Shown here piece after piece: positions 17,770 through 24,885 of a stretch of 24,885 nt of DNA. The DNA is from a virus. The translations under genes and the position numbers were made by a program. Position 1 is the first letter of the stretch, and each line of letters starts with the position of its first letter. The stretch is taken from the UHGV virus genome UHGV-1445333, one strand, 5' to 3'. The notes beneath the pieces are model-generated. The model saw only the letters and a program-made list of their open reading frames with translations. It was not told the DNA's origin and searched no databases.

Positions 17770-18048
17770 TCAGGCCTCGAAGAATTCGCCGTTCTTCGGG
17801 GCTTTTTCTTTTGTCAGCATTCTGGCTACTTTCTTAGCCAGTTCCGCCAACTCCTCGTCTTCAACACCCCATTCAAGAACAGCCAGAAGCATTCCCATTT
17901 TTGGGATAAAGCTGTCTTTCCATCGCGAAATTTGCGATTCATTGATCCCTAATGCATCAGCAACCTTTCGCTGACCACGTACAGCAATTCGATTCAGGAT
18001 GTTGCTTGTAATTGCATTCGCTTTCTTGCGAGTACTTGTAAGTTCCAT
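17770..18048 (-). CDS. cII: CII transcriptional activator, 92 aa
   Basis: Track ORF trimmed to ATG 18048; upstream TAAGGAAATACTTACAT matches the lambda cII leader I recall; SQISRWK...[13 protein letters not shown] core matches lambda CII. Confidence 0.85.
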
Positions 18049-18107
18049 ATGTAAGTATTTCCTTAACAAATAAGAAGTTATGCGCATCAACTTATGCGCG
18101 TTGTATT

Positions 18108-18150
18108 CCCGCATTTCGGCGGGAATGAGGACCATGACTGTTAAAGAGCG
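18108..18150 (-). promoter_or_regulatory. nutR (boxA CGCTCTTTAACA + boxB hairpin)
   Basis: Minus strand: boxA CGCTCTTTAACA (18150-18139) and boxB CCCGC-CGAAAT-GCGGG (18123-18108), between cro and cII; boxB is identical to the one at nutL. Confidence 0.65.
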
Positions 18151-18156
18151 GTGTTA

Positions 18157-18351
18157 CTATTTGTTTTTCTTGTTGCTTGGGAAAGGACGAACTTCCTCTC
18201 CAATCACACTGCCATCAGGCTTTACCGTAACCATAATGTTACGGCCTGCCAGAATGGCCTTGCTGATAGCGCACTGGATTACACCAAAGTCACTGGCTGC
18301 TTTAGCCTGTCCATGGATTTTGGCGTAATCGGCAAGTGTCATTCGAATCAT
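18157..18351 (-). CDS. cro: Cro repressor, 64 aa
   Basis: Product [37 protein letters not shown]...PFPSNKK aligns with lambda Cro ([38 protein letters not shown]...); start at ATG 18351 with SD GGAGAG; the track ORF began at an upstream GTG. Confidence 0.85.
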
Positions 18352-18380
18352 ATGCACTCTCCGTTATTAACCATGAACAA

Positions 18381-18451
18381 AGAATACTACAGGTATTCAA
18401 AGCAATCAATACTTAGGGTATTTTTAGTTTAAGTACCTTAGCTATTAGAAT
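18381..18451. promoter_or_regulatory. Right operator region OR with divergent pR and pRM
   Basis: Three 15-bp sites AATAC-N5-GTATT (18383-18397, 18408-18422; weaker 18432-18446) centred about 24-25 bp apart; pR on minus strand TTGATT-17-TATTCT flanking the first site; pRM on plus strand with -10 TAGAAT 7 nt before the cI ATG (leaderless, as in lambda). Confidence 0.6.
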
Positions 18452-18457
18452 TAAGCT

Positions 18458-19174
18458 ATGGAAAATAAAAAATCACTGACGACAGAACAGCTGGAAGACG
18501 CTAAGCGGCTTAAGGCTTTGTATGAGTCAAAAAAGAAAGAATTGGGAATAACCCAATACTCAATCGCTGATGAACTGGGTATCACCCAAGGAGCGGTAGG
18601 GCATTATCTTAATGGCAGAAATGCGCTAAACGTTGAGGTTGCATCTGGTTTTGCACGATTGTTGCAAGTCTCAATTGCTGATTTTAGCCAGTCAATTGCT
18701 GCCAAGGTTGCAGAACAGGCAGAAAGCCTTAAGAGCGATGCCAACGTAAGGTATGCAGGGGAATACAGAGCAGGAAAGAGGTATCCGGTGTTAAGCAGTA
18801 TCCAGGCTGGCTCGTGGTGTGAAGCATGCGAACCATACACCATTAAAGACATAGATGTTTGGCTTGAGTCTGACGCGCATATTCAAGGTAATGCGTTCTG
18901 GCTTAAAGTGGAAGGTGATTCAATGACGGCACCGGTTGGGTTAAGCATTCCAGAGGGAACATTCGTTCTTTTCGATACCGGAAGGGAGGCGATCAACGGC
19001 AGCTTGGTCATAGCAAAACTTTCTGACTCTAACGAAGCAACATTCAAGAAGCTGATAATCGACGGCGGAAATAAATACCTCAAGGGACTTAATCCTGCAT
19101 GGCCTCTCGTGCCAATCAATGGAAACTGCAAGATTATAGGCGTTGCAATTGAGACAAAACTCAGACTGGTTTGA
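18458..19174 (+). CDS. cI: CI repressor (HTH plus S24 LexA-like autocleavage domain), 238 aa
   Basis: N-terminal block LTTEQLEDAKRLKALYESKKKELG parallels lambda CI; Ala-Gly cleavage site (SIQAGSW), catalytic Ser in GDSM and Lys in FKKL; no SD, consistent with a leaderless pRM transcript. Confidence 0.9.
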   Translation: MENKKSLTTEQLEDAKRLKALYESKKKELGITQYSIADELGITQGAVGHYLNGRNALNVEVASGFARLLQVSIADFSQSIAAKVAEQAESLKSDANVRYAGEYRAGKRYPVLSSIQAGSWCEACEPYTIKDIDVWLESDAHIQGNAFWLKVEGDSMTAPVGLSIPEGTFVLFDTGREAINGSLVIAKLSDSNEATFKKLIIDGGNKYLKGLNPAWPLVPINGNCKIIGVAIETKLRLV

Positions 19175-19192
19175 TCACGCAAGGGGGCGCTT

Positions 19193-19561
19193 ATGGTTGG
19201 AACCGCTATAGCAAGCTTTTTTGGGATGTTGGCAATCTCGACAATTTACGGCTTAGCGCATGCTTTTATTGCGAAATCTCTATCAGAAAAAATAAGCCAG
19301 GCTTGGGCGCATAGATCAGCTCGTTTCATGATTCTGGTGATCATAGCAATACAAGGGATATCTGCATTTATCCTCTATGGATCAAGCTTATACCTATTGT
19401 ATCAAGGCGCGACATTTACGCCTTACACCAGTGATTACGGAACTCTATACGATGGTAGTGAAGACATCACTGTGGCTTGGATCGTCTTTGGTTTATCTAT
19501 GGCCGTGTCTGTTGTAGCAGACATCATTAAGGTAATTCTCGTCTTAACCTTCGCTGACTAA
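19193..19561 (+). CDS. Membrane protein (3 predicted TM helices), 122 aa, directly downstream of cI
   Basis: Strong SD AAGGGGG 5 nt before ATG; 18-nt gap after cI, same strand, no intervening promoter seen; three hydrophobic segments; occupies the lambda rexA/rexB position. Confidence 0.6.
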   Translation: MVGTAIASFFGMLAISTIYGLAHAFIAKSLSEKISQAWAHRSARFMILVIIAIQGISAFILYGSSLYLLYQGATFTPYTSDYGTLYDGSEDITVAWIVFGLSMAVSVVADIIKVILVLTFAD

Positions 19562-19692
19562 CCTATAATCCCGGCAGCAATAGCTATCGGGATCCACTTC
19601 ACATATCCCGCATAAAAAGCACTGAACAAGCAGACACCGAAAAAATAAATATCCTTTGTATTCATTTGCTTATCATTATTTCATCAAAAATA

Positions 19693-19734
19693 AATACCTT
19701 GGGTATTTACACAATAAAATACCTACAGTATTCT
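19693..19734 (+). promoter_or_regulatory. Left operator OL with pL
   Basis: Two operator sites of the OR family: AATACCTTGGGTATT (19693-19707) and AATACCTACAGTATT (19718-19732); pL -35 TTTACA (19706-19711), 17-bp spacer, -10 TATTCT (19729-19734), directed towards N. Confidence 0.6.
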
Positions 19735-19779
19735 TTAGCCATCAGCAGGACGCTGGAAGCCAAACGGAACAGATTGGCA

Positions 19780-19820
19780 GGCTCTTTAACATTGATGGGA
19801 TTGTCCCGCCGAAATGCGGG
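19780..19820 (+). promoter_or_regulatory. nutL (boxA GGCTCTTTAACA + boxB hairpin)
   Basis: BoxA-like GCTCTTTAACA at 19781-19791 and boxB CCCGC-CGAAAT-GCGGG at 19805-19820, about 40 nt downstream of the pL start and upstream of N. Confidence 0.65.
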
Positions 19821-19928
19821 AACCAAAGAGTAGTTGGCTTTGGGGTGACGTGAAGTGCAGCTGCACGACGGCAACCGGAAGATAAGCACCCGGCGCGTCA
19901 CCGCCAAAGTCAATCATCGGAGGTCAAC

Positions 19929-20234
19929 ATGACAGTAGTCATTACATATCTGGCTGAGGATAACGCCAGAAATCGCCGCAGAGCACGCAGACAGGCTCAA
20001 CGTGAACAGGCAATGCAAGAGCAGCGACTGGCGCGAAAAATTGCGCTAAAGCTCTCTGGTTGCGTCAGAGCAGACAAAGCAGCATCACTCGGAAGCCTTC
20101 GCTGCAAGAAGGCAGAAGAAGTCGAGCGTAAACAGAACCGTATTTACTACCGCAAGCCACGCAGTGAAATGGGTGTGACTTGTGTTGGTCGCCAGAAACA
20201 ACGCGGAAAATCAATTCCAGCTTATTACGATTGA
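19929..20234 (+). CDS. N: N-type antitermination protein, 101 aa
   Basis: First pL gene after nutL; N-terminal arginine-rich motif (NARNRRRARRQAQREQAM) like lambdoid N proteins; SD GGAGG 5 nt before ATG. Confidence 0.75.
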   Translation: MTVVITYLAEDNARNRRRARRQAQREQAMQEQRLARKIALKLSGCVRADKAASLGSLRCKKAEEVERKQNRIYYRKPRSEMGVTCVGRQKQRGKSIPAYYD

Positions 20235-20239
20235 GGTTA

Positions 20240-20509
20240 ATGATGAAGTTCAAATTGAACGATGAAGTTAAATGGTCAAGTTCATCAAACGGTGTAACGA
20301 AGGTAAAAATCGGGTTTATCGTCGAGGTGATTCCTCCTGGTGTCAACGTAAAAAAATTCGAACTAGGTCGTCTGCTAGATGCACCTGGCCTTCCGAGGAA
20401 AGAAGAGAGCTATATAGTTTGTGTAGGTCCAAGACCCGGATCTCGTGCCAAGCCAAAATATTACTGGCCGCGAGTTAATAACCTGCGTCGCTTACACGAT
20501 GACAAATAG
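20240..20509 (+). CDS. Hypothetical protein, 89 aa
   Basis: Track ORF 20180-20509 trimmed to ATG at 20240 (tandem ATG ATG, 5 nt after the N stop) with SD GAGG; no motif recognised. Confidence 0.5.
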   Translation: MMKFKLNDEVKWSSSSNGVTKVKIGFIVEVIPPGVNVKKFELGRLLDAPGLPRKEESYIVCVGPRPGSRAKPKYYWPRVNNLRRLHDDK

Positions 20510-20564
20510 AAGTGAGTATCCTTGTTTTACTTTTTCGCGGCAAACCACTTATTTGAGGTGATAT

Positions 20565-20642
20565 ATGGAAGAAGAATTTGAAGAGCATCCTCAGGATGTG
20601 ATGGAACAATACCAGGACTATCCTTATGACTACGACTATTGA
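20565..20642 (+). CDS. Possible 25-aa acidic, Tyr-rich micro-ORF
   Basis: Read by hand: ATG at 20565 with SD GAGG (6-nt spacer); product MEEEFEEHPQDVMEQYQDYPYDYDY; overlaps the ral start by 17 nt. Confidence 0.3.
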   Translation: MEEEFEEHPQDVMEQYQDYPYDYDY

Positions 20643-20826
20643 TAAAAATCAATGGTGTGGACAATTCAAACGATGCAATGGATGCAAGCTGCAATCGGAA
20701 TGTATGGTTAAGCCTGAAGAAATGTTTCCTGTAATGGAAGATGGGAAATATGTCGATAAATGGGCAATACGAACGACGGCAATGATTGCCAGAGAACTTG
20801 GTAAACTGAACAACAAGGCTGCCTGA
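20626..20826 (+). CDS. ral: Ral-like restriction-alleviation protein, 66 aa
   Basis: 66-aa product MTTTIDKNQWCGQFKRCNGCKLQSECMVKPEE... matches my recollection of lambda Ral in sequence, size and position (pL operon distal to N). Confidence 0.55.
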   Translation: MTTTIDKNQWCGQFKRCNGCKLQSECMVKPEEMFPVMEDGKYVDKWAIRTTAMIARELGKLNNKAA

Positions 20827-20849
20827 TGGTGGCCTTTATTTTCTTATTT
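20815..20849 (+). terminator. Intrinsic terminator-like hairpin after ral
   Basis: AAGGCUGCC-UGAU-GGUGGCCUU (9-bp stem with two G-U pairs) followed by UAUUUUCUUAUUU. Confidence 0.5.
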
Positions 20850-20862
20850 GAGAGGAATTAAT

Positions 20863-21027
20863 ATGTCATCAATCCGCTTAACTACGAGAATGAAAGAGGA
20901 AATCGCTCGTAACGCTTTAATTAAGTCTGGGGTTTTCACTGAGCTTGAAGAAGTAACAAAGTTAAAGAACCAGCTTGCACTTGACGCCAGAGTTATTGCG
21001 TTTGGCGGTAAAAAGAAAACTGAGTAA
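20863..21027 (+). CDS. Hypothetical 54-aa protein, in frame with the next ORF
   Basis: Read by hand: ATG at 20863 with SD GAGG (7-nt spacer); ends at TAA 21025-21027, immediately followed in the same frame by the GTG that opens the 152-aa ORF. Confidence 0.45.
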   Translation: MSSIRLTTRMKEEIARNALIKSGVFTELEEVTKLKNQLALDARVIAFGGKKKTE

Positions 21028-21486
21028 GTGGATCAGTTATCATCCAAGTTGGTAGCTATAAGTGAAGAACTTGGAAAGATGGGATGTTCATTTTACTCAT
21101 ACGATTTTCGTTCTACTTCAATTTATCTGACTGTATCTGGCAGAAGGGTTGGATGGCATTCATATGGGAAAGACGGCAACGGCGAAGATATATTTCTCCC
21201 TACTCCGATAAAAGATAAATGCATGTTTGACGCAGAGCACGAAATAACAAAAAGGTTTGATGAAATCTGCTCATTACAACAAAAACTTGAAGCCAAGAAA
21301 AAGGATATCGAATCAAATGTATGGACTGCTTTAAACTCAGTCACAACAGTTAAGCGACTTATTGAGGTTTGGCCTGAAAGCAAAGAGTTGCTACCAAAAG
21401 AAGCAGATAAAGCAAGTACAGCACTTCCTGCTTTACGGGTAGAAGATTTGAATAAGATGATTGGACTTCCTTCCGAGGCCGCATAG
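21028..21486 (+). CDS. Hypothetical protein, 152 aa (GTG start; possibly the distal part of a TAA-interrupted gene)
   Basis: ORF-track product; no convincing SD at the GTG or at the first internal ATG; same frame as the preceding 54-aa ORF. Confidence 0.45.
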   Translation: MDQLSSKLVAISEELGKMGCSFYSYDFRSTSIYLTVSGRRVGWHSYGKDGNGEDIFLPTPIKDKCMFDAEHEITKRFDEICSLQQKLEAKKKDIESNVWTALNSVTTVKRLIEVWPESKELLPKEADKASTALPALRVEDLNKMIGLPSEAA

Positions 21487-21502
21487 TCGGCCTTTATTTT
21501 TG
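21476..21502 (+). terminator. Intrinsic terminator overlapping the stop of the 152-aa ORF
   Basis: AGGCCG-CAUAGU-CGGCCU (6-bp stem) followed by UUAUUUUUGG. Confidence 0.55.
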
Positions 21503-21523
21503 GCATAAACAACAGAGGATAAC

Positions 21524-21820
21524 ATGGAATTTAAAGGTACTGAAGGTAAGTGGGAAATAATGATGGATGGCGATGAGATTAAAATAATCCAGGCAGACTC
21601 ACTTGAAAATGGCGCAGGCTGGCGTTCGTATATTGCAATCTGTGAGGAAGTTCAATGCATTGAAGATGCCAATCTAATAGCGGCATCGCCTGACCTTCTC
21701 GAAGCACTTCAGTTATTACTTAAGCAATCCAAAAATAGAACAACGACAACATATCCAGAATGGTATGGAGCTGTTAATAAAGGTCTCGCAGCAATCAGAA
21801 AAGCCATAGGTGATGAGTAA
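21524..21820 (+). CDS. Hypothetical protein, 98 aa
   Basis: ORF-track product; SD GAGG 5 nt before ATG; acidic. Confidence 0.5.
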   Translation: MEFKGTEGKWEIMMDGDEIKIIQADSLENGAGWRSYIAICEEVQCIEDANLIAASPDLLEALQLLLKQSKNRTTTTYPEWYGAVNKGLAAIRKAIGDE

Positions 21821-21978
21821 TGAATAAGAAATACATTGTTGAAGTTATAGAGCGAGAAACGAAAGAAGTAATTAAACATTTCGAATTTGATAATTATAGA
21901 AAAGCTGACCGCGTAGAAGAAGGATTGTTGCGACAAAGTAATCTCGAAAAATTTGATGTTGTCATGCGATGCGAATAA
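21820..21978 (+). CDS. Hypothetical protein, 52 aa, coupled to the preceding ORF
   Basis: Read by hand: ATG overlaps the upstream TAA (TAATG); product MNKKYIVEVIERETKEVIKHFEFDNYRKADRVEEGLLRQSNLEKFDVVMRCE. Confidence 0.35.
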   Translation: MNKKYIVEVIERETKEVIKHFEFDNYRKADRVEEGLLRQSNLEKFDVVMRCE

Positions 21979-22071
21979 GCGCCTATAGCAGATTTACGAG
22001 TCTGCTATGTGAGCAATGTCGCTCGTAACTAAACAGGAGCCGACTTGTTCTGATTATTGGAAATCTTCTTT

Positions 22072-22098
22072 GCCCTCCAGTGTGAGGGCGATTTTTTA
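22072..22098 (+). terminator. Intrinsic terminator
   Basis: GCCCUC-CAGUGU-GAGGGC (6-bp stem) followed by GAUUUUUUAU. Confidence 0.55.
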
Positions 22099-22117
22099 TC
22101 TATGAGGATATGAATAG

Positions 22118-22486
22118 ATGTCAAACATCAAAAAATACATCATTGATTACGACTGGAAAGCATCAATAGAAATTGAAATCGACCATGACTTAATGACAGA
22201 GGAAAAACTTCACCAAATTAATAATTTCTGGTCAGACTCTGAACACCGACTCAATAAACACGGCTCTGTATTAAATGCTGTATTAATCATGCTAGCGCAA
22301 CATGCTCTGCTTATAGCAATTTCAAGCGACTTAAATGCATATGGTGTTGTGTGTGAGTTCGACTGGAATGATGGAAATGGTCAGGAAGGATGGCCTCCAA
22401 TGGATGGTAGCGAAGGAATAAGAATTACCGATATCGATACATCAGGAATATTTGATTCAGATGATATGACTATCAAAGCCGCCTGA
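22118..22486 (+). CDS. Hypothetical protein, 122 aa
   Basis: ORF-track product; acidic C-terminal half; lies just upstream of cIII, where lambda carries ea10. No sequence identification made. Confidence 0.5.
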   Translation: MSNIKKYIIDYDWKASIEIEIDHDLMTEEKLHQINNFWSDSEHRLNKHGSVLNAVLIMLAQHALLIAISSDLNAYGVVCEFDWNDGNGQEGWPPMDGSEGIRITDIDTSGIFDSDDMTIKAA

Positions 22487-22561
22487 GTGCGGCTTTACCG
22501 CATACCAATAACGCTTCACTTGAGGCGTTTTCGTTATGCAATCAAATATAAGGAGTTACCC

Positions 22562-22696
22562 ATGATGCACTTTCAGCTCGCGGGTAGCGGCGTCATGTCC
22601 GCTTTCTACCCGCACGAATCTGAATTATCACGCCGAGTTAAACAATTAATCAGAGCAGCAAAGAAACAACTGGAGGCGTTATGCGCAATGAAATAG
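22562..22696 (+). CDS. cIII: CIII-like protein (FtsH inhibitor), 44 aa
   Basis: Track ORF 22487-22696 trimmed to ATG 22562 with SD AAGGAG (6-nt spacer); LAGSGVMSAFYPHESELSRRVKQLIRAAKKQL parallels lambda CIII IAGWPVAGCPSESLLERITRKLRDGWKRL. Confidence 0.6.
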   Translation: MMHFQLAGSGVMSAFYPHESELSRRVKQLIRAAKKQLEALCAMK

Positions 22697-22833
22697 CCAT
22701 CAATCACCAGATGCTTCGTGCTGCACAGAACAAAGCAGTAATAGCCCGATTTATTGGTGATTCAAAAATGTGGCTTGAAGCAAATAAAGCGATGAAATCA
22801 GCTATCAACCTTCCGTGGTATCGCAGGAAATGA
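22681..22833 (+). CDS. kil: Kil-like protein, 50 aa
   Basis: Read by hand: ATG 22681 with SD GGAGG; overlaps the cIII 3' end as kil does in lambda; IARFIGDSKMWLEANKAMK loosely resembles what I recall of lambda Kil (weak). Confidence 0.4.
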   Translation: MRNEIAINHQMLRAAQNKAVIARFIGDSKMWLEANKAMKSAINLPWYRRK

Positions 22834-22988
22834 GTTTTACAGATAACTGGTCAGACGAAGAATTCATTCGTCAGATGAAAGAATTAATCGGTAACGAAGG
22901 AGATATTCATGTCACTTGCAACCACAGTGAAGGAGAGCAAGTTACAGAGACGCATGTACACGCAGAAAGCTATCTGGTATCGCCATAA
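22830..22988 (+). CDS. Hypothetical 52-aa protein, coupled to the kil-like ORF
   Basis: Read by hand: ATG overlaps the kil stop (ATGA); product MSFTDNWSDEEFIRQMKELIGNEGDIHVTCNHSEGEQVTETHVHAESYLVSP; weak SD. Confidence 0.3.
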   Translation: MSFTDNWSDEEFIRQMKELIGNEGDIHVTCNHSEGEQVTETHVHAESYLVSP

Positions 22989-23089
22989 TGGTGACCGCGA
23001 AGGAATGCGGGTATGCCTTAATTTGTCCCGAGTCGAAGTATTAAATCAGCGTTATTTCCTTGGGCCGTGTCCATTCTGAGAACAATCAT

Positions 23090-23695
23090 ATGAGCAAAGA
23101 ATTTTACGCAAGACTGGCAGCTATTCAGGAGAATCTGAACGCGCCAAAGAATCAGTACAACTCATTCGGCAAATATAAATACAGAAGCTGCGAAGATATT
23201 CTTGAAGGCGTTAAGCCGTTACTGAATGGTCTGTTTTTATCAATCAGCGATGAAGTTGTGTTGATTGGTGATCGGTATTATGTGAAAGCCACGGCAACTA
23301 TTACCGATGGCGAAAACAGTCATACGGCAACCGCTCTTGCACGAGAGGAAGAAAGCAAGAAAGGAATGGATTCTGCACAAGTTACGGGAGCTACAAGCTC
23401 TTATGCACGCAAGTATTGCCTCAATGGTTTGTTCGGCATTGATGATGCGAAAGATGCAGATACCGACGAGCATAAACATCAGCAGAACGCAGCAGCAAAG
23501 CAGTCAAAACCATCACCTACACCTGAACAGGTTCTAAAAGCATTCACTGACGCAGCAATGCATAAAAACACCGTGGAAGAGCTTAAACAGGCGTTCGCCA
23601 AAGCGTGGAAGATGCTCGAAGGAACACCGGAGCAGCACAAAGCGCAGGACGTTTACAACATCAGACGAGACGAATTAGAAGGAGCTGCTGCTTAA
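23090..23695 (+). CDS. erf: Erf-family single-strand annealing recombinase, about 201 aa
   Basis: ERF-family signature (FYARLAAIQ..., FGKYKYRS.EDIL, ARKYCLNGLFGIDD); track ORF began at an upstream TTG, trimmed to the first ATG. Confidence 0.82.
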   Translation: MSKEFYARLAAIQENLNAPKNQYNSFGKYKYRSCEDILEGVKPLLNGLFLSISDEVVLIGDRYYVKATATITDGENSHTATALAREEESKKGMDSAQVTGATSSYARKYCLNGLFGIDDAKDADTDEHKHQQNAAAKQSKPSPTPEQVLKAFTDAAMHKNTVEELKQAFAKAWKMLEGTPEQHKAQDVYNIRRDELEGAAA

Positions 23696-24078
23696 TGGCA
23701 CATTCGATTACTGTAAGACTAAACAAGCCCGCAAGAGAGTTTCAGGCCGGGGAAAATATCGGATTCAACATCCGTGCTGGCGTTCAGTATTACGATCGCC
23801 AGACAAAAAAGAAAGAATGGACAAACTACAGCGCCGTTGTATTTGCCAAGCCGGGAGCGCAAGCGGATTACTACCGTAGTGTTCTTGTTGAAGGTGGCAT
23901 TGTGGAAATTACCGGAGAAAACATCAGGGTTGATGTTTATCAGGGGCAAAATGGTCAATCAATCACTCTTGAATTACTGAATGCAAAGATTGGATTTGCA
24001 GCTTCAGGAAATGGCCCGCAGCAGCAAAGTAGTAACCAGCAGAACACTCCTGTATACGACGATTCCATCCCATTCTGA
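23695..24078 (+). CDS. ssb: SSB-like OB-fold protein with SSB-type C-terminal tail, 127 aa
   Basis: Start overlaps the erf stop (TAATG); EWTNYSAVVFAK...LVEGGIVEITGE resembles the SSB OB-fold core; Gly/Gln-rich linker and C-terminal DDSIPF resemble the E. coli SSB tip (DDDIPF). Confidence 0.55.
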   Translation: MAHSITVRLNKPAREFQAGENIGFNIRAGVQYYDRQTKKKEWTNYSAVVFAKPGAQADYYRSVLVEGGIVEITGENIRVDVYQGQNGQSITLELLNAKIGFAASGNGPQQQSSNQQNTPVYDDSIPF

Positions 24079-24101
24079 TTTAGAAAAATAAGGATTTAAT
24101 T

Positions 24102-24398
24102 ATGCCAGCGCCTCTGTATGGTGCGGATGACCCACGCCGCTGTTCCGGCAATTCCGTATCGGAGGTGCTGGATAAATTCAGGAAAAACTACGACCGGATA
24201 ATGTCGCTACCGCAGGAAACGAAAGAGGAAAAGGAATTTCGCCACTGCATATGGCTTGCAGAGAAAGAAGAACGAGAGCGAATTTACCAGACATCAATCC
24301 GACCATTCCGCAAAGCAACATATAGCCACTTCCCTGAATATATCGACCCGCGCCTGCGTAATTACCGCTCACGCTATGGCGCTATCAGTAATGACTGA
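24102..24398 (+). CDS. Hypothetical protein, 98 aa
   Basis: ORF-track product; SD AAGGA 7 nt before ATG; basic. Confidence 0.5.
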
Positions 24399-24408
24399 GG
24401 AATTTACC

Positions 24409-24573
24409 ATGAGAGGACTTGCATACAATCCCGGCATTCTTCCGGCAGAAATGATTATTCGCCAACGCGTAAAGCCAATGCCATCGAGAGAGGAATTACT
24501 TAAGCGAAACTCGTTTCCATCAGTGAATCAAAACAAATATCTGAACGCGATGTTGCGGAGTGGGAAGAAATGA
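24409..24573 (+). CDS. Hypothetical protein, 54 aa
   Basis: Track ORF 24256-24573 trimmed to ATG 24409 with SD GAGG (8-nt spacer). Confidence 0.4.
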
Positions 24574-24885
24574 AACAAATGTCACTAATTGAGATGGATG
24601 GATTTCTGAAAGGTAAATGCATCCCACGAGATCTAAAGGTTAACGAAACAAACGCTGAATATCTGGTGCGTAAATTTGCTGAAGCGGAGGCCAAGTGCGC
24701 GGAGCTGGCGGCGGAGAATGCGGGGCTGAAGTCTGGCGCAATGGACGAAATCAAGGTTATCAACCGTGGAGGTCAGGCATATTGCGTAAAAGATGGAGTG
24801 CAAGTTAATCCCATGTATGCAAGAGGGTGGAATGACTATCGCGCAAAGTCTCTGCAATCAGACACCCCAGCCACCGATGCTTTCC
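24570..24885 (+). CDS. Hypothetical protein, 5' part only (at least 105 aa; runs off the window end)
   Basis: ATG 24570 overlaps the upstream stop (ATGA); open frame [52 protein letters not shown]... continues to the last base. Confidence 0.45.

Follow-up and report, generated by a model that had tools for sequence, protein, structure and literature searches.

Gene content of the early-left segment

The window, that is, the whole 24,885-nt stretch of DNA analysed here, belongs to a prophage whose source is a metagenome scaffold. The 2.2-kb stretch between its N-like gene (19929–20234) and cIII (22562–22696) forms the heavily shuffled accessory portion of the early-left operon in a lambda/P22-like Escherichia coli prophage. 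The first-pass annotation had already placed this cluster in a pL operon between N and cIII and had listed ORFs of 89, 54, 152, 98, 52, and 122 amino acids (aa) next to a Ral-like gene; both the location and the reading frames agree with the sequence. The order of elements is N, ORF89, orf28, ral, hairpin 1, an Nmad5 gene carrying a GAA to TAA change, hairpin 2, ORF98, ORF52, PreS/tL2a, ea10, and cIII, with the following features:

19640–19734 (+): putative oL operator, three 23-nt repeats (direct-repeat family D1), and a pL-like promoter (promoter scan)
19781–19821 (+): nutL-like site, read directly from the sequence by analogy with nutL of lambda and P22
19929–20234 (+): N-like antiterminator gene, 101 aa (phrog_271, E 4.5e-36)
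20240–20509 (+): ORF89, 89 aa, ATG start, basic, pI 10 (phrog_11941)
20565–20642 (+): orf28 homologue, 25 codons, overlapping the ral start (phrog_16060, E 4.5e-15)
20626–20826 (+): ral (restriction alleviation), 66 aa (PF11058, phrog_1055)
20815–20845 (+): hairpin 1 with T-run, spanning the ral stop codon (terminator scan)
20863–21486 (+): Nmad5-family gene, 207 codons (PF18757), with an in-frame TAA at 21025–21027
20863–21027 (+): ORF54, the N-terminal part of the Nmad5 gene
21028–21486 (+): ORF152, GTG start, the remainder of the Nmad5 gene
21475–21505 (+): hairpin 2 with T-run, spanning the Nmad5 stop codon (terminator scan)
21524–21820 (+): ORF98, acidic, 98 aa (PF27050, Phage_P22_Y8K6, alias XkdD/Y8K6; P22 orf78 family)
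21820–21978 (+): ORF52, 52 aa, start overlapping the ORF98 stop (TAATG; phrog_6949, E 3.2e-40)
21985–22008 (+): hairpin directly 5' of the PreS block
22011–22098 (+): putative homologue of PreS (LPR1), the Hfq-dependent sRNA of lambda; 88 nt identical to lambda
22118–22486 (+): ea10 (DUF2528), 122 aa, acidic (PF10800, phrog_646)
22475–22529 (+): two hairpins upstream of cIII, at 22475–22496 (spanning the ea10 stop codon) and 22510–22529
22562–22696 (+): cIII, the downstream boundary of the cluster, followed by kil, erf, ssb, and abc2

The pL-like promoter (TTTACA-17-TATTCT, 19706–19734) lies at a position that agrees with pL/oL of lambda and P22. The nutL-like site combines a boxA-like element (GCTCTTTAACA, 19781–19791) with a boxB-like hairpin (TCCCGC-CGAAAT-GCGGGA, 19804–19821) and, by analogy to lambda and P22, would serve as nutL. 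The N-like protein additionally matches PF25694 (N_peptide) with an E of 8e-4, which is under the Pfam cut-off, and the cIII/kil/erf/ssb/abc2 region gave matches to phrog_550, phrog_2055, phrog_155, phrog_44, and phrog_656. Base skews favour the plus strand from ~18500 on, and purifying selection is seen in every protein ORF when compared with relatives. Two minus-strand ORFs (129 aa at 21123–21512 and 93 aa at 20065–20346) were treated as shadows of plus-strand genes.

All six ORFs had been considered unassignable, which holds for ORF89 and ORF52, as their database matches are restricted to PHROG families of unknown function. The other four belong to named families, namely Nmad5 (ORF54 and ORF152), Ea10/DUF2528 (ORF122), and Y8K6 (ORF98). 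Matches to ea/orf proteins of lambda, which the first-pass annotation would have taken as a refutation had all ORFs shown them, were obtained for Ral, the orf28 product, and Ea10, and for none of the other ORFs. The orf28 homologue, absent from the earlier gene list, and ral lie in a block 94% identical to lambda 34381–34071, with ral itself 94% identical at the DNA level. Ral aligns to positions 1–66 of 66 of PF11058 (E 2.2e-48, 162.1 bits) and, judging from its lambda counterpart, would alleviate type I restriction. On sequence grounds, ORF122 is lambda Ea10: it matches PF10800 (E 3.3e-46, 156.5 bits, cut-off 22) and phrog_646 (E 6.6e-70), and its gene is located between PreS/tL2a and cIII, as in lambda, within a block of 98% DNA identity. 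Ea10 of lambda is an abundant, non-essential early protein (PMC3961180, PMC10695390).

ORF89 occupies the position of lambda sieB but is encoded on the pL strand. Its predicted fold is a small SH3/Tudor-like beta-barrel, and its dN/dS against relatives is 0.07. A type II (R67) dihydrofolate reductase was considered and rejected for this protein, as profile comparison revealed neither a sequence relationship nor the active-site VQIY motif. Searches with PADLOC defence models returned no match for any protein, NCBIfam yielded nothing above noise, and no meaningful match to a solved structure came from sequence searches with ORF89, Nmad5, Ea10, or the ORF98 profile. No result obtained here assigns an anti-restriction, host-takeover, or exclusion role, as had been envisaged for this part of lambdoid phages, to any ORF besides Ral.

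The three terminator-like hairpins with T-runs described previously (20815–20836, 21475–21494, and 22070–22091) were recovered by terminator scan and folding. Hairpin 1 (-14.6 kcal/mol, z -3.8) is homologous to the hairpin after lambda ral. Hairpin 2 folds weakly (-11 kcal/mol, z -1.4), and its tail (21483–21516, 34 nt) repeats post-ral lambda sequence (blastn, lambda 34087–34055). Both contain a copy of the 12-nt repeat D14, GGCCTTTATTTT, at 20831–20842 (left, hairpin 1) and 21489–21500 (right, hairpin 2). The third hairpin, followed by TTTTTT, is tL2a and forms the 3' end of PreS. Directly 5' of the PreS block, the hairpin at 21985–22008 (-13 kcal/mol, z -3.3) has a lambda counterpart in the same place with a different stem (-19.7 kcal/mol, z -6.8). 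The two hairpins upstream of cIII (-22 kcal/mol, z -3.2; the second also found in the terminator scan) are both part of the lambda-homologous block, and the stop codons of ral, Nmad5, and ea10 each carry a hairpin. In 18000–24885, eight terminator-like hairpins were found versus 6.4 +/- 2.1 in shuffled sequences, which is not above chance. The significance of the three hairpins thus derives from position and homology, since each is at a gene end and two have lambda counterparts.

A PreS-like sRNA (~22011–22098) had likewise been overlooked in the earlier gene list. In lambda, LPR1/PreS is ~88 nt long, located between ral and ea10, and ends at tL2a (10.1101/2024.10.31.621285). The corresponding stretch of the window lies inside the block 98% identical to lambda 34011–33483 and folds with -28.9 kcal/mol (z -2.9), its 5' end having been placed from the reported length. 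An Rfam 15 search of 18000–24885 at E <= 1 gave one chance snoRNA match outside the region and nothing within it; since no Rfam model recognises the region, the sRNA call is based on lambda identity and this one preprint. Transcripts ending at tL2a would give an Hfq-binding PreS homologue that, as extrapolated from lambda, where PreS raises DnaN synthesis, may act on dnaN.

The interrupted Nmad5 gene

ORF54 and ORF152, previously counted as two of six independent genes, share one reading frame with a lone TAA between them and are, by sequence, fragments of a single interrupted Nmad5 gene. An intact homologue, which differs from the window gene at the stop-codon position, aligns to positions 1–206 of 206 of PF18757 (E 7e-70, 235.7 bits, gathering cut-off 27), while ORF152 alone aligns to positions 54–206 (170.9 bits), and the precomputed PF18757 label is attached to both ORF54 and ORF152. 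The reconstructed 207-aa product would therefore span the whole profile of this family ("nucleotide modification associated domain 5"), but the reading frame is interrupted here. APC_JM3.2 and STEC711, whose DNA is nearly the same apart from this codon, both read GAA at the site of the TAA. Nmad5 is predicted to be non-functional in this prophage, provided that the stop codon did not arise during assembly.

The most serious alternative is that the TAA in the metagenome scaffold stems from faulty sequencing or assembly and that the phage itself carries an intact 207-aa Nmad5. The TAA allele is a singleton, as all 87 of the 87 related loci have GAA at this position. Apart from it, the surrounding 100 nt match APC_JM3.2 exactly, and no other change disables the gene. 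Moreover, in an exact-protein look-up of public assemblies, a genuine 54-aa product followed by the stop was found only in the source scaffold (ERZ28576014 scaffold_1226); five other places among the matches listed for the 54-aa protein are genes cut by contig ends. Yet consensus contigs rarely contain single-base substitution errors, accessory genes of prophages commonly carry recent nonsense mutations, and loss in a lysogen would be favoured if the protein were toxic, as appears to be the case for nmad5 of Dhillonvirus, which resisted cloning in the one experimental study of the family that was found (PMC11846954). We consider an error unlikely and retain the reading of a true nonsense mutation. 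Several public contigs end exactly at the mutated codon, which at first sight resembles an assembly hotspot; this was attributed to selection bias, because an exact-sequence look-up picks genes truncated by contig ends.

ORF98, ORF52, and the question of a functional pair

ORF98 is a member of a large family of early phage proteins. The precomputed PF27050 label is found on the exact ORF98 protein and, among the 120 listed homologues, on the majority; ORF98 matches phrog_1273 (E 2.4e-30), and its family aligns with P22 orf78 in hhalign (probability 96.4%, E 1.1e-9). At E <= 1e-3, the family comprises 13,788 cluster representatives (~13,800 clusters at 50% identity), almost all of them stand-alone proteins of 90–120 aa from phage early operons. 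An LIAAAPxLLEAL helix and a C-terminal AAIxKAxGE helix are invariant or nearly so in the alignment. The AlphaFold2 model of ORF98 (pI 4.5, dN/dS 0.11 against relatives) has a confident C-terminal helical hairpin, and the structure has no PDB match at E <= 1e-3. Pfam scans of long or unusual family members yielded only spurious, repeat-driven matches. No functional studies of PF27050, XkdD/Y8K6, or DUF2528 were found in the literature.

As noted in the first-pass annotation, the ORF98 and ORF52 genes overlap; the junction reads GAGTAATGAAT, a one-base overlap. ORF52 is under purifying selection (27 synonymous vs. 16 non-synonymous differences over 52 codons), occurs in 79 IMG/VR loci, and is 100% identical in phages mEp043, mEp213, and APC_JM3.2. 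Its gene is located directly 3' of an ORF98-family gene in these three phages and in 63 of 74 informative IMG/VR loci, including loci whose ORF98-family members have very different N-terminal domains. Together with the overlapping stop and start codons, this linkage could mean that the two genes make up a module of their own whose products act together, for instance as a toxin-antitoxin or anti-defence pair. The partners vary in both directions, however. More than 15 unrelated genes succeed the ORF98 family across 76 loci (62-aa, 67-aa, 74-aa, 38-aa, and other types), and in the remaining informative loci (11 of 74) ORF52 lies behind genes from outside the family. In P22, the gene after orf78 is orf87, whose product shows no relationship to ORF52. 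Four-base or one-base overlaps are found at 41 of 74 junctions irrespective of the partner, so the TAATG overlap reflects generic operon packing, and recombination at the conserved AAISKALGEE-encoding 3' end would explain the linkage equally well. Since PADLOC, Pfam, and NCBIfam also gave no match to toxin, antitoxin, or defence families, the earlier suggestion of a toxic or co-dependent pair is not upheld: the two genes are not a fixed module, and a joint action of their products appears quite improbable.

A broader proposal, for which we see slim prospects, is that the Y8K6/P22-orf78 family is a modular early-gene adaptor with a constant helical hairpin and swappable N-terminal domains. Y8K6 genes are often followed by a small, variable, translationally coupled gene. 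If the proposal were true, the hairpin could dock onto a common host or phage component, and the N-terminal domain together with the partner (here ORF52) could determine specificity, such as which host defence is countered. The family would then form an extensive counter-defence or takeover system that has gone unrecognised, with the present locus as a single example, and the adjoining Nmad5 gene might have been lost because the host sensed its product or because the product was toxic. Nmad5 and Y8K6 were also checked for a functional link, which was rejected as a consistent association: Nmad5 lies within 2.5 kb at only 4 of the 76 Y8K6 loci, two of these four being close relatives of the window.

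The idea to which we give the least credence is that the nonsense mutation is itself adaptive and removes a host-toxic or defence-sensed protein: one clean substitution breaks Nmad5 while all neighbours are intact, and a single nmad5 substitution lets Dhillonvirus, whose gene resisted cloning, escape the Tmn defence, but deletion of that gene did not abolish Tmn sensitivity, the Dhillonvirus protein is longer and encoded in a different genomic context near capsid genes (PMC11846954), and a singleton allele whose 87 relatives all keep the gene intact carries no selection signal.

Mosaic composition and proposed early expression

The window shares its strand logic and gene order with the pL region of lambda (sieB, orf28, ral, tL2 terminators with PreS/LPR1, ea10). 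DNA identity to lambda is 94% across orf28, ral, and the post-ral hairpin and 98% across PreS/tL2a, ea10, and the cIII leader; between these two lambda-like blocks, i.e. between ral and PreS, the window carries a 1.17-kb insert (20843–22010) with Nmad5, ORF98, and ORF52, all three of which lambda lacks in this segment. Conversely, lambda sieB is missing and ORF89 is found in its place, the N gene is of a different type than lambda N, and the downstream recombination genes are P22-type erf and abc2 instead of the lambda red genes. In P22, the pL order is 24, sieB/esc, ral, orf78, orf87, 17, and c3. Both P22 and the window have ral followed by a Y8K6-family gene and a small, translationally coupled ORF, both have erf and abc2 downstream, and the window also resembles P22 in its head genes. 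In contrast, the P22 segment lacks Nmad5, ea10, and ORF89, and P22 gene 17 is absent from the window.

The Escherichia phage APC_JM3.2 (Lederbergvirus) encodes Nmad5, ORF98, ORF52, and DUF2528 in the same order, with 98.8% identity over 75% of the stretch, but its Nmad5 gene is intact, ral is not annotated, and ORF89 was not found. In mEp043 and mEp213, no Nmad5 is annotated in the segment. The 87 loci with Nmad5 have more than 40 different combinations of flanking genes, and this wide variation of neighbours among relatives marks the region as a recombination hotspot, in line with the accessory hotspot proposed at first. None of 50,697 phage records or 5,426 complete E. coli genomes has the 2.2-kb arrangement in full.

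Thus, we interpret the stretch, with a probability of roughly 0.85, as a delayed-early accessory pL segment of a P22-like/lambdoid E. coli prophage that is built of independently exchangeable cassettes and in which Nmad5 is inactivated by a nonsense mutation. Such an arrangement would arise by recombination at short conserved boundary sequences. Candidate boundaries are the 3' end of ORF98-family genes, which is conserved, and the GGCCTTTATTTT terminator tail on both sides of the Nmad5 cassette. If expression follows the pattern of lambda and P22, RNA polymerase would start at pL, become N-modified at nutL, and then pass the intrinsic terminators that close individual cassettes. This read-through would result in joint early expression of all small proteins, which would be made together early in lytic growth and remain silent in the lysogen. 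Ea10, ORF89, ORF98, and ORF52 do not resemble enzymes and would most probably bind host or phage macromolecules.

This mosaic region is an ordinary one that offers no surprises to a specialist in lambdoid phages, and the main value of its analysis is a corrected annotation: two presumed genes merge into a single broken one, an ORF left without assignment is lambda Ea10, and one of the terminators is where a phage sRNA described only recently ends. ORF89 (phrog_11941), the Y8K6 protein (PF27050), and ORF52 (phrog_6949) represent conserved, uncharacterised small-protein families, and as they are encoded beside Ral, where anti-restriction and host-modulating functions occur, they are reasonable candidates for anti-defence screens. 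The locus as a whole illustrates how the early-left operons of lambdoid phages are rebuilt cassette by cassette at terminator-like boundaries.

Prophage setting and gene order

The window is a P22-like/lambdoid prophage, with genes for a portal protein, a PBSX-type terminase and a P22-type capsid protein in its left part, and is identical to part of an ENA metagenome scaffold (ERZ28576014 scaffold_1226; 25,110 bp). GC and AT skews are positive from ~18.5 kb on, which fits plus-strand coding.

Features flanking the early-left segment
18458-19174, +, cI-like repressor, opening the plus-strand series from ~18.4 kb
19193-19561, +, 122-aa membrane ORF (phrog_6534, E 2.4e-79)
19640-19734, +, three operator-like repeats and a promoter-like site
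19781-19821, +, boxA/boxB-like element
19929-20234, +, N-like gene, directly before the segment
cIII at 22562-22696, followed by kil, erf, ssb and abc2, +, after the segment

The membrane ORF, which found no family in the Pfam search, appears to be multi-pass and starts 19 nt past the stop codon of the repressor gene. In lambda this position is held by rexAB, and by analogy the ORF is a candidate for an exclusion or defence gene expressed by the prophage. Between it and the oL operators lies a strongly hydrophobic candidate ORF of 35 codons (19561-19665, minus strand) that had no match in the PHROG search.

A broken Nmad5 gene and its neighbours

The first-pass annotation described the early-left (pL) segment between the N-like gene and cIII (20240-22486) as an accessory-gene hotspot with six unassignable ORFs, here named by their length in amino acids, and three hairpin terminators. 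All of the ORFs are present at the sizes it gave, as are the hairpins and the TAATG junction of ORF98 and ORF52, but six separate unassignable genes they are not. ORF54 and ORF152 (20863-21486) are one Nmad5 gene, sharing a reading frame in which a TAA at 21025-21027 is the sole separation. This codon is GAA in phage APC_JM3.2 and E. coli STEC711, where the surrounding DNA is almost identical and the homologue is annotated as an Nmad5-family protein of 207 aa. The intact homologue spans the PF18757 profile in full (E 7e-70), and ORF152 accounts for positions 54-206. With G or T allowed at the stop position, a pattern scan recovered 84 viral contigs; three annotated loci bring the total to 87, and 87/87 carry G. 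Searched by exact sequence, the 54-aa product ended at a true stop codon in the source scaffold alone among the places listed; in the other five the gene was cut by a contig end. The TAA thus marks either a very recent pseudogene or, which we consider unlikely, a base error. In each of two unrelated viral contigs, L217 (945-1577) and L239 (1544-2167), a distant Nmad5 homologue (50-57% identity) precedes a distant Y8K6-family gene by 0.3-0.9 kb, in the order of the window; two of ~60 distant loci are too few for an association.

ORF98 (21524-21820) carries the Pfam label PF27050 (Phage_P22_Y8K6) and aligns with P22 orf78, which likewise follows ral. Its family has 13,788 representatives (50% identity, E ≤ 1e-3), nearly all stand-alone and 90-120 aa long. 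Common to the members are a LIAAAPxLLEAL helix, which is invariant, and an AAIxKAxGE helix at the C-terminus, whereas the N-terminal and linker segments vary. The AlphaFold2 model (mean pLDDT 72) has a confident C-terminal helical hairpin, and solved structures offered no informative relative. P0162 (723 aa) and P0174 (1035 aa) are built of 12-15 tandem Y8K6-like modules, whereas virtually all other members are single modules of 90-120 aa; Pfam matches on these two were spurious.

ORF52 (21820-21978) matches phrog_6949, is under purifying selection and is 100% identical in mEp043, mEp213 and APC_JM3.2. It had been singled out with ORF98 as a special pair, and it does directly follow an ORF98-family gene in 63/74 informative loci. 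However, it follows unrelated genes in 11/74, many unrelated small genes come after ORF98-family genes, and in P22 the partner of orf78 is orf87, which is unrelated to ORF52. One- or four-base overlaps occur at 41/74 ORF98-family junctions irrespective of partner, so the overlap reflects generic operon packing. A dedicated two-gene module is very improbable, and recombination at the 3' end conserved across the ORF98 family adequately explains the linkage.

ORF122 (22118-22486) is lambda Ea10: it matches PF10800 (E 3e-46) and lies in a block, 22011-22538, that shares 98% identity with lambda 34011-33483. In lambda, Ea10 is a non-essential, abundant and functionally uncharacterised protein (PMC3961180, PMC10695390). 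Ral is full-length, its start overlapped by a 25-codon ORF homologous to lambda orf28. For ORF89, phrog_11941 was the sole match; it has 31 homologues, the named organisms being Enterobacterales, a dN/dS of 0.07, and a predicted small SH3/Tudor-like barrel (pLDDT 85.8), a generic fold from which function is not assignable. A resemblance to R67 dihydrofolate reductase was lost on profile comparison. PADLOC defence models gave no matches among the proteins of the stretch.

A PreS homologue and hairpin boundaries

An RNA gene was overlooked in the first pass. LPR1/PreS is an Hfq-dependent lambda sRNA of ~88 nt, processed to ~68 nt, which lies between ral and ea10, ends at terminator tL2a and increases DnaN translation (preprint 10.1101/2024.10.31.621285, 2024). 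Window positions 22011-22098 match lambda at every base and close with a GC-rich hairpin and a T6 run (22070-22098), the lambda homology starting exactly 88 nt upstream of the T-run end. This identity and span identify the third annotated terminator, on sequence grounds, as tL2a, closing a PreS homologue that no Rfam model detected. Directly 5' of the block is a stable hairpin (21985-22008, +); lambda has one in the same place (33999-34037; 1200-1238 of lambda locus L004, minus strand) with a completely different stem sequence. It may be a conserved element for sRNA 5'-end processing or a mosaic joint. The cIII leader lies inside the 98%-identical block, and Rfam at E ≤ 1 gave no RNA family, thermosensor-type included, for cIII and its leader.

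The three terminator-like hairpins, each followed by a T-run, occupy 20815-20836, 21475-21494 and 22070-22091; a further two flank the stop codon of ea10 and the leader of cIII. Terminator-like motifs are not in excess over shuffled sequence (8 vs. 6.4 ± 2.1); the hairpins owe their credibility to their exact placement at gene ends and to the lambda counterparts of two of them. The ral, Nmad5 and ea10 stop codons each lie within a hairpin, after a C-terminus ending in (K/E)AA. The Nmad5 cassette is flanked by two identical 12-nt direct copies of GGCCTTTATTTT (20831-20842 and 21489-21500), whereas lambda has one copy, after ral; downstream of the right-hand copy, the window continues as lambda post-ral sequence. 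Such a pattern would be expected if a cassette had been inserted or exchanged at a boundary resembling a terminator.

Mosaicism of the early-left segment

Compared to lambda, ORF89 takes the place of sieB, and a 1.17-kb insert (20843-22010; Nmad5, ORF98 and ORF52) separates the ral hairpin from PreS. Among the 87 loci, chosen solely for Nmad5, the neighbouring genes occur in more than 40 combinations, and the full arrangement was found in no phage record (50,697) or complete E. coli genome (5,426), the best match being APC_JM3.2 (75% coverage). This variability among relatives supports the hotspot reading.

By analogy with lambda and P22, transcription would start from pL, N would load at nutL, and read-through of the cassette terminators would give delayed-early co-expression, while termination at tL2a would form PreS. 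Ral would act on type I restriction-modification, and the remaining small proteins may bind host or phage macromolecules. For most families of the stretch, public records of phages and prophages contain near-identical copies, and the stretch is an ordinary lambdoid accessory region made up of catalogued families.
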